This document shows, piece by piece, positions 3,480 through 19,759 of a DNA stretch of 33,586 bases; the stretch's first letter is position 1; every line of letters begins with the position of its first letter. Made by a program: the position numbers and the translations under genes. The DNA is taken from the NCBI RefSeq assembly GCF_006345805.1, contig NW_021832969.1, positions 1 through 33,586 of the forward strand. The letters are read 5' to 3'. This DNA is from Octopus sinensis (taxonomy: Eukaryota). The notes below the pieces were generated by a model. That model was not told the DNA's origin, made no database searches, and worked only from the letters and a program-made list of their open reading frames with translations.

Positions 3480-3710
3480 GATACTGAAATTACGGAATTG
3501 GAGTTAATCAGAATAGAATATGCTCGAACCCGTCCATAGGATAGAGCAGGTGCCTCATTTTAGATCCAAAGACCTGTACAAGGGGATTTTGTACATGTGA
3601 ACTTTCTTGAGGTTTGACTCGTTGATGACAATAATGTCTGGATGGTTGCTGTTTACCATCTCAACAAAGTCTCTTGGTAGTTAGGACATTCACAGTGATG
3701 ATAGGAGCTA
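3480..3710 (-). pseudogene. Possible APE endonuclease fragment of a LINE ORF2
   Basis: Minus-strand IITVNV...SNHPDIIVINESNL resembles the APE N-terminal xxNV and DIIxxxExxL motifs; stops and frameshifts present. Confidence 0.4.
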
Positions 3711-4351
3711 TGTTGCTGGCGTGCTCTTCTCAAATAAAAGCCATTGTATCATTTTAGGTTTTACACCTAGTTTTGTCAGGGCTCTTATACAACGTCAAAA
3801 GATATCTAAAAGGGATCGCTCGAGCTGTGCTTTGCTTTCGGAAGACTTTTATACATGTGTTTGTCCCACAGAGTAGGCACTGCATTTTTTCCCAAATCGG
3901 TTGCACCAAAAGCATCTTGCAGCAGGGGCTTGTACCACTCGTAACGGATAAGACTGAAGCCAGCTGCGAACCCGGCGCAAAAAATGGTGTTAGCCTCGGT
4001 TTTGGAGTCGAGCATCAACTTCCCAAAAGGAATGTCGGTTTTATACTGAGAGTATCTTTCGAACTTGAAGTCCGCCTCGAAAATTTCACGTAGATGAACG
4101 TCAAGATCTTTGTTCGAAATCCAGTGAGGGATCCTTTTTAAAATTTTCCTTATTTTAATTGGTCTGTTATTTCTACTTGAATAACTATTTTTACAAAATA
4201 AGAATAAACTTAAAGATAGAAATTGAAATGTGGGAATATTACAAAATCATTATGTCTTGTGATCTAATCAACATTAAATATTTTTCACATCAATATTTTT
4301 TCTATTTATAACAAAATTTCGTTGCATTAGACAAATTTTGACTCTAAATTA

Positions 4352-6138
4352 TGTCACAGTCCGAATAAAATACACGCCGAATAATTACATTCTTTAATTT
4401 TACTGAAATTAAAAATTTACACAACAAAATGTTTAATTATATTAAAAAATATGATTTTTAATGTAAAATTCATTAACCTTTTTACTAATTTATATAAACA
4501 AAACCAACCACACTCAATTTACGCAGTTAACTTATACGTTTGAATATTGTTATTCCATTTTAGGTTTCCTAATAAAATTTTCATATAAAATTTATCGTTA
4601 ATTTAAATAAAAAATTATTTTTATTATGGATTTATGAAAATTAATCAATTTTAGCTATTCGAGAAATATGAATTCCGTGTAACCGCTCACCGTCCTCCTT
4701 TTCGATAACATAGAGATCATTTCTTCGCTCGACAACAATATACTTATTAACATCAAGTCCATCGTACAGCGGATACTGCCGAACATTGGCATCGTTGTCC
4801 TGTCTAAAATTAATTTGACGCTTGAGACCTTAAAAGCACAGTCGTTCCGACATTGATATTTCTTCGTCGTATCTCCATTTTTTTTTCAATCATTTTTTCG
4901 CCAGCAATAATTAAGTTTTCTAATGCACTTTCTCGTGCCTCTGATAATCCAGTTGAATCATAGGCTAAAAGTTGCTCCATTCCCCCTTCATCAATCCTTC
5001 CAGGATTTTCAACACCCATGAATATATAAAAAGGGATTTTTTTTGTCGAAGAATGAATGCTGTTATTGTAATCATACACGATGTCCTTTATGCATTCGCG
5101 ATATCGTCCAAAACATTTTGAGAAGAACTTGCCGACGATATCCAGCGTTTTATGCTTTGATTAAATCTACAAATCGATTTAAATCATTAACTTTCGACTT
5201 GCCCTTGTACCCAAGGAGCACGAGGCCTCCCACGTACATGTTTTATACCATATTTCGTACATAGAGCATCCATTTGCGAATTGCAAAATTCCCTTCCATT
5301 ATCAGTGTGTAGAATAAGCGGAGGCCCGACATAATAAAAAATTCTTTGGAATAAATCTGCGATTTCTTCAGAAGATTTGGTCACCGACAGTTCAAGCATT
5401 ACATATTTGGAAAAAGAATCCACAATTACCAAAATCTATTTATTAACATTAAATTCATACCCAGCTAAAGCCATCATTCAACGCCGAATATCTTCTGAGG
5501 TCAATTAAATCCGCAATGTATCTGTCCCTACATCTCCTTGCAATGATTGGCGTAATCGGAGGCTTCGTAGACAATAATTTTTTCGACTAAGAATATTTAC
5601 TAAAAGGAGTTATTACCTGACAGAAAGCACAATTCGAAATCACCTTAGAGATTTCTTCTCTATTCAATCCATAATAGAGATTTCTTAATTTCGAAAAAAG
5701 CCGGTCTCTCCAAAGTGGTTATAGTTATGTTCCGCCTAAATTTTATTTATTAAGTTGGACCTCAACGCACTTAAGCTTTAATTCGATTTCATCTTCACAG
5801 AAAAAAACGCAATTTAAGCCCATTTTTCGAAAATATGTTTTTCCATTTTCAAAATGGAAATTCTTTCCCAATTTTGTGAGCCTGTATCGCTCATGCCGCT
5901 CGATTGACGATGTATCAAAGTTGGAGTCTTTCATTTCTTTGATTTTGTCCAGTGTTTCCTTAAATAATCTCACTACACGCATGTTCACGCTTTTTTAAAT
6001 AAAAAATAATAATGTGATTCTACTAAAATAAATAATCAATTATTGATTTTTTTCATACTAATTTTTAGATTTCTAATTTTTTCAGCCATTTGTGACAAGT
6101 GTAGATTATTCGGCGTGTATTTTATTCGGACTGTCACA
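4352..6138 (-). mobile_element. Complete Ginger-type (Gypsy-integrase-like) DNA transposon, 1787 bp
   Basis: 34-bp TIRs TGTCACAGTCCGAATAAAATACACGCCGAATAAT at 4352-4385 and, inverted with 1 mismatch, at 6105-6138. 5-bp TSD AATTA at 4347-4351 and 6139-6143. Encodes only an integrase: no LTR, RT or gag. Confidence 0.92.
4641..5982 (-). pseudogene. Ginger transposase (HHCC zinc finger + rve DDE integrase + C-terminal domain), 5 introns, three apparent 1-nt deletions
   Basis: ATG 5982, TAA 4641-4643. GT-AG introns at 5736-5760, 5587-5616, 5436-5460, 5167-5191 and 4804-4828. Motifs H-x3-H...CAFC, YIADLID, ILHTDNGREF, QGQVE. Frameshifts near 5708, 5192 and 5115; the last two are absent in the copy at 23585-23690. 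Confidence 0.9.
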
Positions 6139-6228: not shown

Positions 6229-6933
6229 ATGTAGTACAACTAAACTGAGATTTGATCGGAGAATCTCTGGTTATGTATTCTTCTGAATTTTAAAGCATTT
6301 ATGATATTTAATTAACAACGAAAATCGTTAAGTCCCAGCGGCAAGGACGCAGTGTGCGTTGCCCCGAACAATGGCCAGACCGATTCTTATAAATACATTA
6401 ATAAAAGTATTCTCCGTATAATAACAGGAACATTTCCAGAGCTTGGTTCGGCCTCCCCTTTTAGCTTTCTGTTTTGCACTTGCTTTACTTATTTCCGACA
6501 CAAGCAGTGACTTTATTTGAATCCGAGGGTTGTATAACTTTTGTTTAAAAACCCCGGACTACGACGAATACAATCTCATCAATGGTCAGAGAAATTTCGG
6601 AAATATTCGTGGAAACAACCACCGTCCTTCCAATCCCTTGCTTTGACTCTGAAATATTCCCCAAGTGGCGCGAATATTCTCTACTGTAAATTTAAAGGAA
6701 AAATCGAATAGAGTGGTAGACAGTCAATTTGGCCAACATTTGGTCAAAGTCTGTTCAATTCTTTTACAGGCTTCATTAATCTCTTTTTGGCCTGTTAGGA
6801 AGAGTAGAACATCGCCACTGGTCTCCTCACACATGTGGATCGAGATGACAAAATTAATCGCAAAATCCAAATAGTTAGACTCTGGCACAGGAGAATAATA
6901 CAATTTGACTAAAAACAATCTTCTTGGAATCAT
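6229..6933 (-). pseudogene. DHX15: Internal fragment of DEAH-box splicing helicase DHX15/PRP43, degenerate
   Basis: YYSPVPESNYL...IHMCEETSGDVLLFLTGQKEINEAC; GRTVVVSTNISEISLTIDEIVFVV; QKLYNPR...ISKASAKQKAKRGGRT; T*PEILRSNL. Stops, frameshifts and decayed motif VI; both ends missing. Confidence 0.88.
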
Positions 6934-7337
6934 TTGAATATTTTCTTTTCATTTTTATACTTTAATTTTGTTTATTTCAACAAATCTTGCTATCATTAAT
7001 CTAAATGACTTTATTTTTTAAAATCAGATAAAGGCTTTATTAACTAATTATTATCAAGAATATTTAATTTAGAACTTAAAGCCGTCACAAAAAGCTCCCT
7101 ATCTGACTAAACCGTATTACATTCAATTTTAAGAATCACATATTTGGTTAAAAATTGTGAGTTTATAAAATTTCCAACAAAAATTAAAATATTTCACTAC
7201 TTAATGGATACTTAGTTATTGGATTTGAGCTAATATAGTGAAAAATAAAATTAAGAGAAAATCCAATATGAGAACCACAATCTTTATGTGAAGTATCATT
7301 ACCAACGATTTTAACTATTTGATTTTTCTACTTATTG

Positions 7338-7643: not shown

Positions 7644-9336
7644 CTACTCCGTTTGGACATCAATGTGGGAGTATGAAGCAAAAAATGTCTAAAAGTACAA
7701 AAAAACAATAAACCTTCATAAACTGAGAATATTGGGATATATTCTCAGTCGCACATATTTCTCTAATCGAATGCATCGACAATTGTGGTATCCCTAAATC
7801 GACAGTCCTCAACCCTAGTCTAGTCGACATGACTGGGCCAATTGTACTCCCACAGGGCGAATCATTCCTCACCAAAATATCCTAAAATACATCAAAAATC
7901 ATACAGAAATGGGAACATTGGCAATATTACCAACTTCCTTAGCAACTGCCGCCGTAATGGCAGTGGTTGCGTAACTTTGGCAAGCATTATACTTGACAGT
8001 GACTCCCTATATACTTGATTACGTAATGTATTACAGCATTGAGATGTACTTGATGGAGAATCTCATGTTTTTCACTAGTATACTATATATAGATGTATTA
8101 CCTGTAGTTAGGATGTACCCCATGTACCATATCGGCACTAATTAGGAAGGAATTAGCTATAGTCTCCTCAAAACGTGACACACAATCAAATGAAGAACAA
8201 ATTCTGATCATAACTGACTGCATTAGTCGAGATTCCGCCCCCTGAGCAGAAGCAGAGCCAACCTAAGACAAAATACACACAAATCACAGACAACCTCTTC
8301 ATTGTCAAACAAGGCCACCATTCTAATAACGGAATCCTCTCCTAAACTGTCCAAAGATCCAATCAACCCCTAAATTTGAATAAAAACACATGTACCTCCA
8401 CACTGCTGTAACAGGAAGTCAGATTGTCAAGCCGAGGAGCAAATATAAACTCATTTCTTAACCCACCAGTGCGAGATGGCTGGGAATCTGAGAGCATCAA
8501 GTCTGTTGAGACAATCTGAGAGTTTTCCACGTTTAGTTGAGTGGCCAACAAATCTCTTAGAGGATCTTGGTCGTTGGCATGTGACTGCAAACCCAATAGT
8601 GGGATACTAATATATTTTATATAGATTTTGTTTACAAATTTGTCTCCTTGTTGAATTCAAGTTTATCGTTGGCAGTTCTGTCCAAGTGAATAGCTAAGGT
8701 AGGTATTCGAAGGAGAACATCTTTGATATCAACTAACCGGTGAACCAATTTATTATTTTCCTATATATATTTTTATATTTTATAAATTGATTGATTAATT
8801 AAATAACATACTAAAACTACTCTGTGATGTGGGGTAAAGTACCAATGTAAGTCACATGTAAAAACATACCCGAATAATGACTCTTCCAGCGATTTTAAGG
8901 TCTCTATCAAACCAAGTATGCCACAACCCTCCACCATAGCACTCACATCGGACAAGCTCACACCCACATGCAGTTGTTCTATAGTTGGGCTTAATCTTAC
9001 GAATAGTAAGAAATCAAGCAACTTTAATACAAGGACTGTCCGTGTGTGCTCCTACAATAGCAAAACCATTTCCGGGGACGTACTTCCCTCCGACAGCGAA
9101 TGCTATGATTGTTGAGAAATTGTTGATTATAAAGTACTGCAAAACATTATTTGATTTTGGCATTACTTTGCTTGAGGGGCTTAGTCTCCAAGAGGAGCGT
9201 TCTTTTAATTGTGTGAAGCCTGCTTGTAGGAGTAGGTTTTTAATTTGGTCCACCGCTATGGATTAGTATGGGTTGTAGAACCGTGATATGGAGAAGGAGA
9301 GTTGTCTATGAACGAGAGAAATCCAGGAATTGTCAT
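7644..9336 (-). CDS. DNPEP: Aspartyl aminopeptidase (peptidase M18), intact, 12 exons
   Basis: ATG 9336, TAG 7644-7646. Introns 9256-9281, 9137-9166, 8996-9022, 8761-8869, 8607-8635, 8370-8395, 8263-8294, 8075-8101, 8007-8034, 7882-7904, 7689-7713. Motifs [59 protein letters not shown] all in frame. Confidence 0.97.
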
Positions 9337-13105: not shown

Positions 13106-13460
13106 TGTCACCGTTCATTCAATGGACCACGCCGTTGAATGGACCGACTACTTTTCATTAAAATAAAAATGTAATTTTTATGAAATAGATGACGATCAAA
13201 TTATTTTAAGTTAATAGACAATAATTGTTTCGAAATGTTTATTTTGTTTGTAATTTTTTGATCCATATTTGTTAGTGAAAGAAATTGATGGCTACAAAAC
13301 CTCAAACAACTCCTATAATCGCTAAAAGACTCGTGATAGATACATCGCCGACTTAATAAATCTTAGAGGTTTCTCCCCCTTAAATGATTCTTTTCCTGGG
13401 AATTACATTCGATTCATATTTTATAGATTTTAGTAATTATAAACTCTTTTTCTAAGTATG
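13106..13460 (+). mobile_element. Ginger-type element left end with deleted integrase fragment
   Basis: Begins TGTCAC. Peptide TKPQTTPIIAKR.RDRYIADLINLR...FSW|decayed intron|ILVIINSFSKY has the same intron position as the complete copy. Confidence 0.8.
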
Positions 13461-14529
13461 TTGTTGTGTAAATGACAACAGCGAAAATATCCGCATGTTG
13501 CAGATCTTCCTAGTGCTGAGTCACCCAATTACTTCGATTCTCTGCCTACTCGTCAGTCTGGTGATACTGCGCCCCGACTTATGATTCACTTCAACAAAGA
13601 TACAACGAGTCGCGTTATAAGTCAAACTGATCACGTGTCGTGGGTTTCTTTCGAAGGTGACCCCCTCACAAATGTAACTTCTACTTGATGACTGAAAAGT
13701 GTAAAACTTTGAATGCTCGGAACATTTGTTACTCTGAGTAGTTATGATTGCTCCCACGGAATATTCATGTTTACTCCCCAAGACACGATTTCCGGTGACT
13801 GTGAACTGATTTATCGAAGGACAGGCAATGAAAGCGCCTCCTTTCGACACTCCGAACTCCCAGTACTGGACGGAGCACCAATGATAATAATCTCTATAAA
13901 ATATCGATGGCATACAAATGTGGAGATATCGCTCAAATATTTCATCCAGTCCTCGCACTAGTCATGAATCACTCCAAAAATACTCAGTTCCGAGTTGGTG
14001 GAACAAGTCGACTCGTGTAACTTGTTTTCTAAAATGAGGGATTAATTCAACCAATGAGCAGCCTCTCGCTTCTCTCGCATCGGTAATGGTATGGGTTTAT
14101 GCACATGCGAAGTTGCCCTTTCCGAAATCCGTTTTCGCACAAAGAAACCAACTCACAGATTTCCACATCCTCCACCCGGAAGAGACGAAAGATAATCACG
14201 TGCGGGTAGTGTTTTTTCCCAGCAATCTGAATCAGTCGTGGAAAGTCAACCTGAATTCGTCCATCGACAGTGGACTCGATGCTCACACATCCTGTCGCTT
14301 GACGCCCTCCGTTGACAATTGCTTCAACAAAGTCTTGGATAACCTCGGAACTTTTGAATCTTCGGAGAAAGCCTTTGATCAAAGTTCTTGAATTCTCCTG
14401 TTTTGTCCCGTCTCTGGAAACTGTGCAGAAAATTAGATCGTCTGTGATTTCGTTGTACTCCCCGTCTTTCCCAAACATTTCTGAGGCAGACGCGTTTTGT
14501 CCATTTAAATATCGTGTTGATCCGGACAT
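13461..14529 (-). pseudogene. SMAD4: Divergent SMAD gene (SMAD4/Medea-like): MH1 plus N-terminal two-thirds of MH2, 3'-truncated
   Basis: MH1 CVSIESTVDGRIQ|IAGKKHYPHV...CINPYHY; MH2 HWCSVQYWE...YICEGV...IFVE. Introns 14227-14250, 14029-14051, 13958-13983, 13681-13707, 13506-13532. Homology stops at the Ginger junction near 13460 and no SFVKGWG-like segment was found. Subfamily assignment is tentative. Confidence 0.8.
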
Positions 14530-16246
14530 TGAATACGCCGTTCCAGTTTGTCAAAATACTCATTGTTTGAGTTTCTCAGGGGCATCGGGAAACCCCATTT
14601 GCTCTCTCTTTCATTCAAAAAGTTTACGAATCATGAAAAATTTGCCAAATATAGACTATGATAATTATAATTTCCATTTAAATTATAATAAGTGGGATTA
14701 ATCTCCCTAAAATAGTACCATTTTATTGTTTCCTAGACTAATAAGCAAATCAATTATCAAACTGCATGCATCCTAATCTTCTCAATAAACTGGCTTCTCG
14801 ATTCATTTTGCTTTTCCCTGCACATTCACAATTGTCTATGCCTGTAAAATGAAATTAAACAGGCAGGGTTTCTATCTCTTCTGTTGTCTTCAATCCTCAG
14901 GGAGTTGGATATTCCATTATAAAAGCTTAAGTAAATACAGTATGAATAGCATCTCCACCCAAATATGGCTTGAGTATAAATTATAACAACAGTCTGAAAT
15001 GAAGAGCACAATATAATGAAGTAAAGTAACTGTAACCAACTTCGGTGGCCGATGATTTGAAGCAATACTCAAATAATATGTATAATAATGAGTTAAATAG
15101 GCGTAACATCTCGAATGTGCATGTCATGATAATTGTTAGTTATTTGATATCATATCAGCCTCAATTAAATCAGATTTGACGACCTTGAATGCAAGCAAAC
15201 CTACAAACTGTAAAAGACTAAGCAGATTACCCTTTTCGAAGTTAGATTTCTTATAATCTCTTGACTTTTAATAAATAGGGGATTAATCAACGTTTTTTAG
15301 CCTGAAAGTACGACAAATGAGTCGATCAAAGAGATTAAAATCCATAATTGGAAAGGGAAAGACTCGTTAATAACATGTATTGCGAATGACCTAATTCACT
15401 CTGGCTTTATTAAAACGACTATAATTCTATTAAACTCTTGTGAGCAATGGTTTATGCTGAGACAAAAATTTTACTCGAGACTAAATTGACCCCATCGAGG
15501 TTAAATTATGGATTCTGATAATAAAGAAGCCCTAAATTACTTATTTGCAGTCATGTGATCAATTAGTCTATCAAATTAAAATCCAAGCAAACTAAAGTCT
15601 AAAATTGAGAAATTTAATTTGAAGTGTGGGTGCCAAAAAATAAAAATCTCACTTCTGTAAATTAGAGCTGAAAAGTAAAGTCCGGATTATATTCATTGCT
15701 TGAATTGTATCAAAACATGGAATTTGGGGAAACAGAGAATGTAAATGCGAGGAGTCCCACTCTACTGAAAACAGAATCTCGAGGGGCCAAGCAAATTAAT
15801 GGACTCAACGACAATGTATTTCATAAGGAATTTATTAACTTCTTGTTTACCTATTATTAGCAGGAAGCCAAAAATAATATAAAAATATTTTTTCTAGGAA
15901 TTATATCTGATAATTTCGACTTGATCAAAACGCAGTGTCAAACATCGGACACAAGGACTAACAAAACAAGACTCAACTAACGTGTTTATTCATTTGTGGG
16001 AATATAACTTATGTGACAATTTTTCATTTCACATCGACGAACGTAACAACCAAAGTTATAAAAATTTGTTTCAGTCACAAACAAAGCACAAAGGAATGGC
16101 CGGATTGCGACGGAGACATTGCAACATCAAAATGATAAACACAGAAATTTACTTTGGTGAGTTTTCTAGGGAAATTAATTTAGCTTCGACAATTTTTATT
16201 TGGAATGGAATGTGAAATTCATTAGAAATTTTGATCATTCTGAAAA

Positions 16247-18507
16247 ATGAATACTCTAAAAGATTTTCCACCTCACCCTCTGATTCGTGCTCTCTATGAT
16301 GTCTGGTTGAGAATCTGTGAAGTGTCGCGTAATTTGATTCGTATAATATTTTTAATGTTAATTAGCCAACCTGAGTCAAAAGTTCGGCAGATTAATTGAA
16401 AAATCTATAAATTAGCATAATCCTAAAAATATATTGGAAATCGCCGTCGACGCCTCGATGTGCTGTTCTATTTGCAGGCTGAAGGAAATGTTCAGGGAAT
16501 TTCCAAACAGTGGCAACCCAGGTGAATATACTAACGATTACTCCAGTAGTTTGGCATGCGGGAATCCTCACGGGCTGGTTAGTTGAGGTCCAAATGGATT
16601 GGATCATGACCAGCTTACGATTTGAGGACAATCTATTTTTTTCTGACTTTGATTTCCTCGACTCGCAGTACTTTCCGATTTTGATCTGTAGGGAAGTGTT
16701 GGATTTGGAGACAGTCCAGAGACTGCTTAATCAGATTCTTGACAGCTATGAGGGTGTGGGGACTAATCTGAACATCCAAACTCTATTCCGACAAATTGAC
16801 AAATTTGTAGTTGAGGGAAAATGTTTGAATGAGTTAGTAATTGTCGTATCATTACAGTCTCGATATGCCTGTTCCCCCAGCCAAGTCCATCAAATGTAAA
16901 CTCTTTGACGTTCGAACGATTAAATAACACGTAGAATGAAATCACGTTCGGGGAATGTAGCCAGGATCTCCAAGTTTGTAGAAGAATTTCTGGCTTTGTA
17001 TACGAGGACGAAATCGAGCTCATAAAATGGATGCATGTCCGCAGCTTCGAGAATGTTCTTCCCGTTGGTTCGTTGTTTAACAGCCAGAGTTCTCGATTAC
17101 TGCAAATGTCCGACACAAACTCGAATCTGGAAATGTCCTTCAACCAACAAGGAATCAACGTCTTTTTCGCGCTGCTCAAATTCCTGGAGGTCAGTCCATA
17201 ATAAAATTCGCAGAACGAATACGACGTCGCAAATTATTTCCGAGTCATCTCCCCGGCGTCGTCAAATTGGGATTTGTGGGATAGAATGGGGTATGGCAAT
17301 GAGTTTGTGGGGACCTACGAAGTATAATTGCAAAATGCTACTCTAGCACATGTTTCTCATCTGTCCTGCACGAGACAGAAAAACCTATCTAATAAATAAG
17401 AAAATTCCTTTTCATTGGTCCGCCAGTCCACTCATTTTGTAGTATCTACTTCAAACAGATGAGTCCCTACTCTCGGGACTTGCCTGTTAAATTGGTAGAC
17501 TACGATCCCATCTTCTCAAACGCCGGTCAGCACTCTGACATGACATTCTTGAACAGTGTCTCCAATTACGACGATTCGTGCGTGTTCTGTTCCAGGGAAA
17601 AGGTCACTCCCGACTTGTCAATTCTAGTTGCAAGACGAACTCGTCGGCGTCCTTAATTTGTGCAAGTCGATTTATTCCGCGTTTGACCTCGACTTGTCGG
17701 CAAAATTCATTTCAAAGCCTTCGATGAATTCAACAAGACACAAGGAGTGTGATTTGATCACCCAAGTTGACGGTGATTAATTTACCAGATAATTCGGAGT
17801 GCTCTCTCGGCGACGGGGATCACCTTCGAAGAGAGCGCTGGATATTCCCAACTGCCCTTTGTACTATTCCTGGCTAATGTACTAGGTAACTCTTAACGTC
17901 CGGACGTATGACGACTCCACTTACACGTGCGGGATCGTGGAGGTGGACCTCACTTCGGGGGAGAGATTTGATTTATTCTACGAATAGTCTCACCCTTGTG
18001 TCCAATGCCTAGTGATGGTTGCAGAAAGACTCCCGCAATCATTCATCACCAAATCATTGGGTCCATTCAAGAATTCACCAAGATCTTACTTCACCACTAC
18101 AAGGGATATTGGTTTTTCATATTCCTGACCTCAGGCCATTCTGGCTTTCCCCGATACAATGCACCGTCGTTTCCCTGCGAGAGGAGTTTTTGGAATATTC
18201 AAAGACGGTACTCTTGGTGGTTATAACCCAGGTCTATCAAACTATACGAAGACGGCACATCCGGGCAGTCATGTCTTGGAATTTCGACTGTTGCATCTCC
18301 GATCGACTCAATAACGCAAAAAAGAATTCAAGCTTCACTCTGGGTAATATGTCACTCCAACTACGCCCAGTCATTGGACGGGAAGAGCTTATGCAAAATC
18401 AAGTTCACGTGATTGGGACCAACTTGGATTTGGGACGTGTTTCCGTGGAGGTGGCAGTCGACTTGATGAGTGAATTACTCAATACGAAAAGCCGACAAGT
18501 TTTTTAA
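16247..18507 (+). CDS. Highly divergent threonyl-tRNA synthetase paralog, predicted catalytically inactive, ~18 ultrashort introns
   Basis: The spliced product is colinear with cytosolic ThrRS: RRISGF (QRIYGI), GINVFFALLKFLE, HC|IYFKQMSPYSRDLP, DDSCVFC, TCGIVEVDL...RFDLFY, PAIIHHQIIGSIQE, GYW|PFWLSPIQ, FTL|VIGREE, stop 18505-18507. GT-AG introns of 23-34 nt (e.g. 16341-16365, 16522-16546, 16833-16857, 16910-16934, 17064-17087, 17861-17885, 18112-18134, 18344-18370) give an open frame. The exon model at 16366-16480 is least certain. Confidence 0.85.
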
Positions 18508-18609
18508 CATCTTTTTGAGAATAAATATGGCTTCAATCAATTGATAATTACAAATTAAGAAAAAAATAAACAAAAGTGCTTATATGCCTTCAACCTAAAA
18601 ATATAAATA

Positions 18610-18890
18610 TGTCGAGGGTGAAATCGTGACAGATGTCATAACACTGACAGTCGTCTTAAGTCACCATAAAATAATAATCCACGACAAAATAATTACTTTA
18701 TCCTAACAGGCCATACTATGATGTTTGTCTATGATGACGCAGAATAAAACTGACTGAAATTATTTCTTGGAGAGCATTACGTGGATATTTCGAAAGTTAA
18801 AAAATTCCGACTGAAAAAGCCGAAAATTTCATTCTTATTGACAGAAAGCTATATCTGGAAAATACTAATCAACTCCACAAGCTTCAACAC
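18610..18890 (+). mobile_element. Probable Ginger-type element 5' remnant
   Basis: Begins TGTCG. Peptide KAENFILIDRKLYLENTNQLHKL resembles LYLKDENNQKHKL of the Ginger copy at 22117. Confidence 0.5.
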
Positions 18891-19403
18891 TTACAGAAGG
18901 TGCATAATATTTCTGAATCAACAAACCAGACGGTAAAGACAGCCTCAAAACATATATTAATTACAAATTTGGTTTTTCTCGGGTAAATTTCCTAATTATC
19001 AATAAAACCATGGGAGTAAATCGATCGAAACATAAATTTAGCATCAAAAAGTATTCAATTTATAATTACTTAAGCAGTTCATATTTGGAAGGACTAATTC
19101 TTCACTAAAATCAATAACCTTTGTTTCTTTCGTTTTTTACTTTGTACTTTCGTATTTTGAGAAGTTTGAAAAACTCATGTTCTTTCTCAACATTGATTAA
19201 AAGTTCATTAAAGTAAGCTACATATACCGTACACAAAAAATTGGAAAACATGTGTCAATTAAATTTTTATTTTTAAGAAAATGTTGTGAAAATGTGGCCG
19301 ATTTAGAATTTGGCCAGTTTTCGAAAGTTTATTTTACTTTTAATTATTTTTTACAAAATTAACATTTTAAGTATATAAAAATAAATTAAATATTGTGTTG
19401 TTG

Positions 19404-19630
19404 ATGGCAGGGCAGCTCGCTTCGATTTATGGGTCAGAAAAAGACAAGTATAGAGGGTATAGTCACAAGCAGAGTAAATTGTTCATTTTTCTTCAAAATC
19501 GGAGCATGCAGACACGGGGACCAGTGCACGCGCATTCACAACAAACCCAACTTCAGCCAAACCGTGCTGATCACGAACATGTTCCCGGGGGCACAGGTGA
19601 GTCACCTCTACTCGGGGTCAGCTCCAAGTT
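19404..19630 (+). pseudogene. U2AF1: U2AF small subunit (U2AF35) 5' fragment
   Basis: MAGQLASIYGSEKDK|VNCSFFFKIGACRHGDQCTRIHNKPNFSQTVLITNM with a 25-nt intron at 19448-19472. Homology ends shortly after a second putative intron at 19597; most of the UHM and the second zinc finger are absent. Confidence 0.88.
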
Positions 19631-19759
19631 GGTCTGCATTTTTAGAGATAATTCCTCCCTATTTTGTTTTTATGACAGAGTTTTTTGATTTAAATCATTT
19701 GATTTTAGTCAACAAAAATATCAATGTTACTTTGTTGACCTATGGGAGGAATTAAGTAA

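Follow-up and report, generated by a model that had tools for sequence, protein, structure and literature searches.

What becomes of a threonyl-tRNA synthetase (ThrRS) that loses its active site and keeps its reading frame is the question raised by a locus in a 2.7-Gb octopus assembly. The window, that is, the whole stretch of 33,586 nucleotides analyzed here, is the entire contig C9440. A sequence-only reading had placed a ThrRS-like gene with an open spliced frame at 16247-18507 (+), and both the position and the frame were confirmed. In the preferred model of this gene, hereafter gene C, the frame of 618 codons runs from an ATG at 16247 to a TAA ending at 18507, is interrupted by 16 GT-AG introns of 23 to 34 nt, and contains one terminal stop (Table 1). 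The intron number, put at about 18 in the earlier reading, was corrected to 16.

Table 1. Features of gene C and of the surrounding duplicated block (positions in the window)
Feature	Coordinates	Strand	Remarks
ThrRS-derived pseudo-synthetase gene C	16247..18507	+	17 exons, 16 introns, 618 codons (preferred model)
Exons 1-2, in place of the N-terminal/TGS domain	16247..16521	+	No profile recognition; intron 16382-16415 least secure
Degenerate editing (N2) domain	16547..17042	+	Neither the HxxxH nor the DLCRGPH motif retained
First part of the catalytic core, with motif 1 (retaining Gly and Pro), the ordering loop, and adjacent short strands	17043..17443	+	Zinc-ligand Cys lost
Remaining catalytic core	17444..18106	+	Lost: motif 2 Arg/Glu, Phe, Gln, Thr-loop Tyr/Lys, motif 3 Arg
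PFWLSP linker and anticodon-binding domain	18107..18507	+	Fold signature retained, both anticodon arginines lost
Putative upstream exon of 20 codons, rich in Arg, from ATG 16096, with a canonical 27-nt intron at 16157-16183	16096..16183	+	
Duplicated block comprising the Smad-like gene, gene C, and the 5' end of U2AF35	13200..19638		All or part ~98-99% identical in four other contigs; flanks differ

The earlier reading had allowed that a TAG at 16413-16415 might be exonic. This TAG most plausibly serves as the acceptor of an intron at 16382-16415, whose removal leaves the frame open and which lies within two alignment columns of the ancestral TGS intron; the 5' end of the model is provisional. 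A model with an exonic TAG was rejected, as was a model with 18 introns, in which a variant at 16436 would create a stop; in the preferred frame, the variants at 16436 and 16469 are both synonymous. Intron 16382-16415 is atypical in two respects: at 34 nt, it is the longest of the 43 introns of gene C and the two related genes described below, A and B (the others are 22 to 30 nt), and it is in phase 0, whereas its counterpart in the host ThrRS gene, A, and B is in phase 2. The segment 16341-16365 also resembles a typical intron, and removing it together with 16382-16415 shifts the frame. It is possible that translation of gene C starts at a later in-frame ATG. Upstream, a 30-codon frame at 16096-16215 (+) with an Arg-rich start could be a uORF or an alternative first exon; the exon starting at ATG 16096 reaches the main frame solely via a 106-nt intron.

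Judged by its profile scores and intron positions, gene C is by descent a member of the ThrRS family. Against a profile of 20 ThrRS proteins, the spliced product scored 165 bits (E 4e-52); the catalytic domain scored 105.7 bits, compared to a shuffle maximum of 7.3 (1000 shuffles, 676 reported), and the anticodon domain scored 57.7 bits, compared to 6.1 (1000 shuffles, 940 reported). All 16 introns map onto introns of the host ThrRS gene, 15 of them in the same phase within 6 alignment columns and 10 within 1 column. Since the scores exceed those of the shuffles and the intron positions match the host gene, the similarity is not due to chance. The editing domain gave a marginal 6.0 bits, equaled by 1 of 842 reported shuffles, and the profile gave no signal in the first 80 residues (the N1/TGS region). 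The colinearity with ThrRS proposed from the sequence therefore holds for the catalytic and anticodon domains, while the N-terminus and editing domain are aligned by their intron positions alone. The retained introns led us to reject an origin of gene C as a retrocopy. A Pfam search with 10 single-exon frames returned no families; the top PDB match of the C-terminal frame was a ThrRS, at an E value of 0.11; and frames of gene C matched anticodon-domain and class II core clusters in the ESM Atlas at 0.84-0.87, which we treat only as leads.

A ThrRS profile search of the assembly contigs found four kinds of locus among 27 scored candidates. The host ThrRS gene lies on the chromosome-scale contig C2 and has 17 introns of 211 to 3850 nt. 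Genes A (contig C13496) and B (contig C12762) lie on small contigs and have introns of 22 to 30 nt, and four further contigs carry copies of gene C. The introns of A, B, and C pooled have a median of 25 nt (n = 43); the reported median for dicyemid introns is 27 nt (PMC6543705), and among animals, introns this small are described solely for dicyemids and myxobolid myxozoans in the report that treats them (PMC13644364). A myxozoan source, our first guess, was rejected, as Pax6 points to Dicyema: a Pax6 gene with tiny introns on contig C9061 is 98% identical to Dicyema acuticephalum Pax6 over 122 residues, and every other match listed is below 80% identity. The assembly also holds two types of 18S gene, one of 1667 nt on a small contig and the host type of about 2600 nt. 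It thus appears that a dicyemid genome was coassembled with that of its octopus host. Because the window shares the intron size and contig class of these loci, and by this resemblance rather than by a physical link, it is assigned to the same dicyemid and is probably DNA of the parasite and not of the host. Candidate dicyemid small contigs are C9440, C13496, C12762, C9061, C1618, C2292, and C12467, and two more-divergent paired-box genes with tiny introns were seen on parasite contigs C12762 and C8591.

The small contigs contain at least one cytosolic SerRS, at least one mitochondrial-type SerRS, at least one U2AF35 type, and at least one parasite-type 18S gene (12 18S candidates scored), lower bounds that fit a single parasite species. 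We rejected the idea that A and B are orthologues from two parasite species, since a single parasite-type 18S was found among the 12 scored candidates; the finding of one cytosolic and one mitochondrial SerRS and one U2AF35 type, counts that are floors, also speaks against it.

The motif substitutions named in the sequence-only reading were found where it had placed them: FSNA at 17513, NSVSNYDDSC at 17552, NKKIPFHC at 17395, YSQLPF at 17843, and GSIQE at ~18060. Only 4 of 22 synthetic-site residues are kept in C, whereas A and B each keep all 22; the positions carry E. coli labels, among which the number of the motif 2 Arg agrees with the literature mapping. Among 217 columns with an invariance of 95% or more across 87 database ThrRS proteins and the host, A keeps 202, B keeps 169, and C keeps 73. 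The losses in C are uneven: 21/89 charged or polar, 34/90 hydrophobic, and 18/38 Gly or Pro invariant positions are retained, and the anticodon domain (14/24) has the highest share of any region. The sequence marks of an active ThrRS, namely the ATP arginines, the zinc triad, and the anticodon arginines, are missing from C. The motif 2 Arg and Glu are replaced by Ser and a gap and the motif 3 Arg by Glu; the Cys-His-His zinc triad has become Ile, Cys, and His; and the two anticodon-reading arginines are gone, one being Asn and the other falling in VHVIGT, which has no Arg. The core segment 17444..18106 retains one Asp, one zinc His, and the Gly-Ser of motif 3. By the logic of class II chemistry, the product of gene C would be unable to form threonyl-adenylate, and the residues support the claim that it is catalytically dead.

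Gene C is not the only ThrRS available to the parasite, as the search for a canonical gene yielded A and B, both with intact active sites and present in one full copy each. A is a fully intact ThrRS. B, at 3617-6060 of its C12762 locus, is intact for synthesis and degenerate for editing: it keeps one of five editing residues, has Ala at one anticodon Arg, and has a basic N-terminus under one first-exon model. B is likely to be a lineage-specific mitochondrial ThrRS because it is fast evolving (branch length in a quick tree, 2.66, versus 0.84 for A) and editing degenerate and has a presequence-like N-terminus. One report's list of tRNAs of Dicyema sp. contains no mitochondrial tRNA-Thr (PMC6543705).

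Over the core, C shares ~25% identity with A and with B, compared to 46% between A and B; the BLAST score to C is 139 bits for B and 124 bits for A. Three host-type introns (before VWH, after YSQLPF, and after YSKT) are present in C and absent from both A and B. Because it keeps these ancestral introns, C is probably older than the A/B split; the simplest reading of the intron pattern is a DNA-level duplication preceding that split, the alternative being that A and B lost the introns in parallel. These two genes were sisters in the quick tree (SH-aLRT 99) and more weakly so in a core-only tree (61/82). The trees cannot place C, whose branch length sits at the ceiling of 10, and a clade of A, B, and C is compatible with the data (p-AU 0.72).

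Full copies of gene C that are 98 to 99% identical are found on five contigs (C9440, C10817, C8692, C9510, and C9075), and ten shorter matches of 88 to 98% identity are found on six others. The block common to the five contigs spans only ~5 to 9 kb, and U2AF35 is complete only on C9510, its 5' part being cut in the other four, the window included; for these reasons, we rejected the possibility that the five contigs are plain alleles. As the sole contig with a complete U2AF35, C9510 probably represents the parent locus, and the copy in the window would have arisen by segmental duplication. That the window copy itself is a silent duplicate of a working parent locus is a sizable possibility, if one we would bet against. 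The earlier statement that all splice sites are intact is true of the window copy, but the C8692 copy has lost the acceptor at 17346, and the C10817 copy is frameshifted by a 1-nt deletion at 16319; these defects may be real lesions or sequencing errors. RDLP, listed earlier among the surviving motifs, is not fixed, its Arg having been replaced by Trp in three of the five copies. The C10817 copy differs from the window chiefly by C-to-T changes and single-base deletions, a pattern of decay or of poor consensus. Partial copies of C elsewhere carry indels already at 88 to 93% identity, showing how unselected copies decay in this genome; in the four fragments that were aligned, introns are kept and indels are present. 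Intron-bearing fragments of C and B at 88 to 98% identity on other contigs indicate frequent capture of gene pieces at the DNA level.

Other genes of the window were noted in passing. Head to head with gene C, inside the duplicated block, is a highly divergent Smad-like gene (13521-14850, -) with an MH1 domain and a short altered C-terminal part. The 5' part of U2AF35 (19405-19638, +) is cut by a transposon-like stretch, and other copies are cut elsewhere, one of them by LINE-like sequence. Open frames at 6328-6948 and 7660-9262 (-) resemble parts of an aspartyl aminopeptidase and a Prp43-type DEAH helicase, the helicase being the frame at 6328-6948.

The copies allowed us to ask whether gene C is selected as a protein. 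All five differ by 26 synonymous and 27 replacement changes, with 17.1 synonymous changes expected when the same base changes are placed at random (P = 0.006). With the frameshifted C10817 copy left out, 22 synonymous and 20 replacement changes were counted, with 13.0 synonymous changes expected (P = 0.0026; omega, ~0.4); the 12 differences of the frameshifted copy from the window look neutral (5 versus 4.5 expected). Introns vary less than synonymous sites (6/404 versus 22/390 sites; P = 0.002), as expected were they spliced. These data support the view that C is a real pseudo-synthetase under selection as a protein. The alternative that C is a dying or dead gene, its function recently lost or dispensable and its open frame a remnant, gains from the disabling changes in two of the five copies, the weak constraint that an omega of ~0.4 represents, the need for an atypical intron at the 5' end, and the fact that the lack of stops among the changes is not significant taken alone (chance, 0.12). 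However, a divergence of ~75% of amino acids with no stop or frameshift and with 15 introns in the ancestral phase requires long selection, and the synonymous excess among copies that are 98% identical implies that selection has also been recent. We therefore consider a dying gene improbable.

Constraint is unevenly distributed along the protein. The N-terminal half is indistinguishable from neutral (omega, ~0.8; n = 13), whereas the core and anticodon domain show an omega of ~0.3 (P = 0.001). The most constrained part, on tiny counts, is the motif 1 dimerization region, codons 222 to 322 (17043..17443), with seven synonymous changes and one replacement. Within it, codons 222 to 276 have four synonymous changes and no replacements (P = 0.004), which survives correction for eight regions (~0.03), and codons 277 to 322 have three and one (P = 0.03), which does not. 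The anticodon domain has five synonymous and two replacement changes (P = 0.07), and the three segments with motif 2, the Thr loop, and motif 3, taken together, have three and five. This lack of constraint at the active site bears on the idea that C has acquired a new enzymatic activity built on the class II site, in the manner of EpmA or asparagine synthetase A. A His, an Asp, and the Cys that replaces the second His do remain near the metal site; however, paralogues of the EpmA and asparagine synthetase A type retain the ATP-binding arginines of motifs 2 and 3, and C has lost both, the latter to Glu. A new enzymatic activity is, in our estimate, very improbable.

The reading that we favor, while giving it slightly less than an even chance, is that C is the inactive subunit of a heterodimer with a ThrRS whose active site is intact, as SLIMP is for SerRS. 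It rests on the dimer region of C, which is retained and, on small counts, appears constrained, whereas everything that acts on its own tRNA has been lost. The dimer elements of ThrRS are described as motif 1 and two adjacent short strands, and catalysis as requiring dimerization (PMC6794377); human ThrRS-L is reported to coprecipitate with ThrRS (PMC6794377; PMC10200997), and insect mitochondrial SerRS to be an obligate heterodimer of an active subunit and the dead-site SLIMP (PMC10570016). Motif 1 of C is 61% similar to that of the host. By this model, C, in what is likely a dicyemid, would have shed its ATP-, threonine-, zinc-, and anticodon-binding residues and kept an intact frame; it would be transcribed and spliced, and its product would fold and pair through the motif 1 surface with A or B, giving a heterodimer with one active site. 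C would supply the dimer contact needed for ThrRS catalysis, and its own dead face would thereby be freed for another use. By analogy with the asymmetric SerRS2/SLIMP pair, B would be a somewhat likelier partner than A because of its long branch, slightly higher BLAST score to C, and basic N-terminus. A mitochondrial partner is made less likely by the lack of a presequence in the preferred model of gene C.

Several observations weigh against a heterodimer: the N-terminal half lacks significant constraint, two of five copies are broken, and the trees are unable to place C. A and B each retain a motif 1 of their own (61% and 48% identical to that of the host, respectively) and show no evident loss for C to complement; the editing residues and the anticodon Arg lost from B are also lost from C. 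In yeast MST1, the noncatalytic subunit is reported to contact the tRNA bound on the other subunit through a loop containing Ser146, Tyr147, and Asn148 (PMC4756836). The corresponding loop of C is changed, with Trp in place of its Arg in three of five copies; C may not, then, supply such cross-subunit tRNA contacts. The motif 1 constraint fits a homodimer equally well, and a functional pseudo-enzyme acting apart from active synthetases, as a homodimeric scaffold or an accessory subunit of some other machine in the manner of PolG2 or HisZ, is the next reading to consider. The loss of the cross-subunit tRNA loop and the anticodon arginines suits it, the well-kept anticodon domain (14/24) might serve as a protein-binding module, and C may be too divergent from A and B (~25% identity) to form a mixed interface with either. 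On the other hand, no partner or extra domain is visible, and it is heterodimers of ThrRS paralogues that have a reported precedent (PMC6794377). We regard this homodimeric role as possible but rather unlikely.

Of the three roles that the sequence-only reading had proposed, the heterodimer partner is thus favored, by the constraint on motif 1 and the adjacent strands, and the loss of both anticodon arginines speaks against an anticodon-reading regulator that binds tRNA or mRNA. Use of the ThrRS anticodon domain to bind RNA would be consistent with the full-length architecture, with the recognizable anticodon domain, and with its excess of synonymous changes, but among the invariant residues, those that are charged or polar have been retained least. 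A regulator of this kind seems to us improbable.

C resembles the cytoplasmic-type ThrRS proteins (TARS1 family; human 4HWT and 4P3N, E. coli 1QF6, and yeast MST1 4YYE) in domain order and length class; it has 16 of the 17 mapped introns of the host gene and shares the motif 1 Gly and Pro, the PFWLSP linker, and the anticodon-domain signature. It differs in keeping 73 of 217 near-invariant and 4 of 22 synthetic-site residues and in its unrecognizable N-terminal domain. Other synthetase folds reused without aminoacylation, such as PolG2 and the HisRS-like domain of GCN2, derive from GlyRS or HisRS. The mitoribosomal protein mL39 derives from ThrRS N-terminal domains; the catalytic and anticodon domains, the best preserved in C, are missing from it. 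HisZ, like C, reuses a synthetase fold without aminoacylation but derives from HisRS (PMC9437257). SLIMP is, like C, a class II paralogue with a collapsed active site and an active paralogue beside it (PMC10570016). It belongs to a different synthetase family, SerRS, so that C would work like SLIMP, if our reading is right, without being a member of its family. SLIMP is also described as keeping a tRNA-binding coiled coil that its partner lost, whereas C has lost the anticodon arginines and A and B show no complementary loss, and its heterodimer has been demonstrated, whereas that of C is only inferred (PMC10570016). Vertebrate TARSL2/TARS3 (ThrRS-L) is likewise a third ThrRS gene in an animal and is reported to associate with ThrRS, but it aminoacylates and edits in vitro and has a long N-terminal extension (PMC6794377; PMC10200997); C is dead, shorter, and independently derived.

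The earlier remark that no equivalent animal ThrRS paralogue was known agrees with our literature search, in which no dead one was found in print for an animal. This search, whose coverage of subscription papers was poor, found neither a dead full-length ThrRS nor dicyemid synthetases. The ThrRS entries given in a review of duplicated synthetases are all active forms (PMC9437257), and the one supplementary file of PMC6736024 had no match for synthetase terms. In a word-indexed search for orthologues with the C-terminal frame of C, none of 700 scored candidates reached an E value of ≤0.001; an exhaustive HMMER search of 1.84 billion representatives gave one match, a repetitive 1961-aa protein judged spurious. 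These blank searches say little, because canonical ThrRS also missed the cutoff in the word-indexed search and because, in a search with an exon of gene A, the best 120 of 4342 matches included none labeled as dicyemid and none exceeding 78% identity.

The dicyemid gene set is described as reduced to ~5,000 genes (PMC6736024). That three ThrRS-type genes, one of them long dead, are kept in such a genome points to a needed noncatalytic job. It is possible, though less likely than not, that tRNA-Thr charging in dicyemids depends on an obligate heterodimer in which one ThrRS subunit is active and the other dead, a half-of-sites arrangement like that of SerRS2/SLIMP that arose independently of it and was kept although the gene set is among the most reduced in animals. 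As a practical point, the octopus assembly carries a parasite genome. Should C prove to pair with an active ThrRS, the SerRS2/SLIMP design would have a second, independent example, and one could ask directly whether dimeric class II synthetases repeatedly follow the route of losing one subunit's active site.
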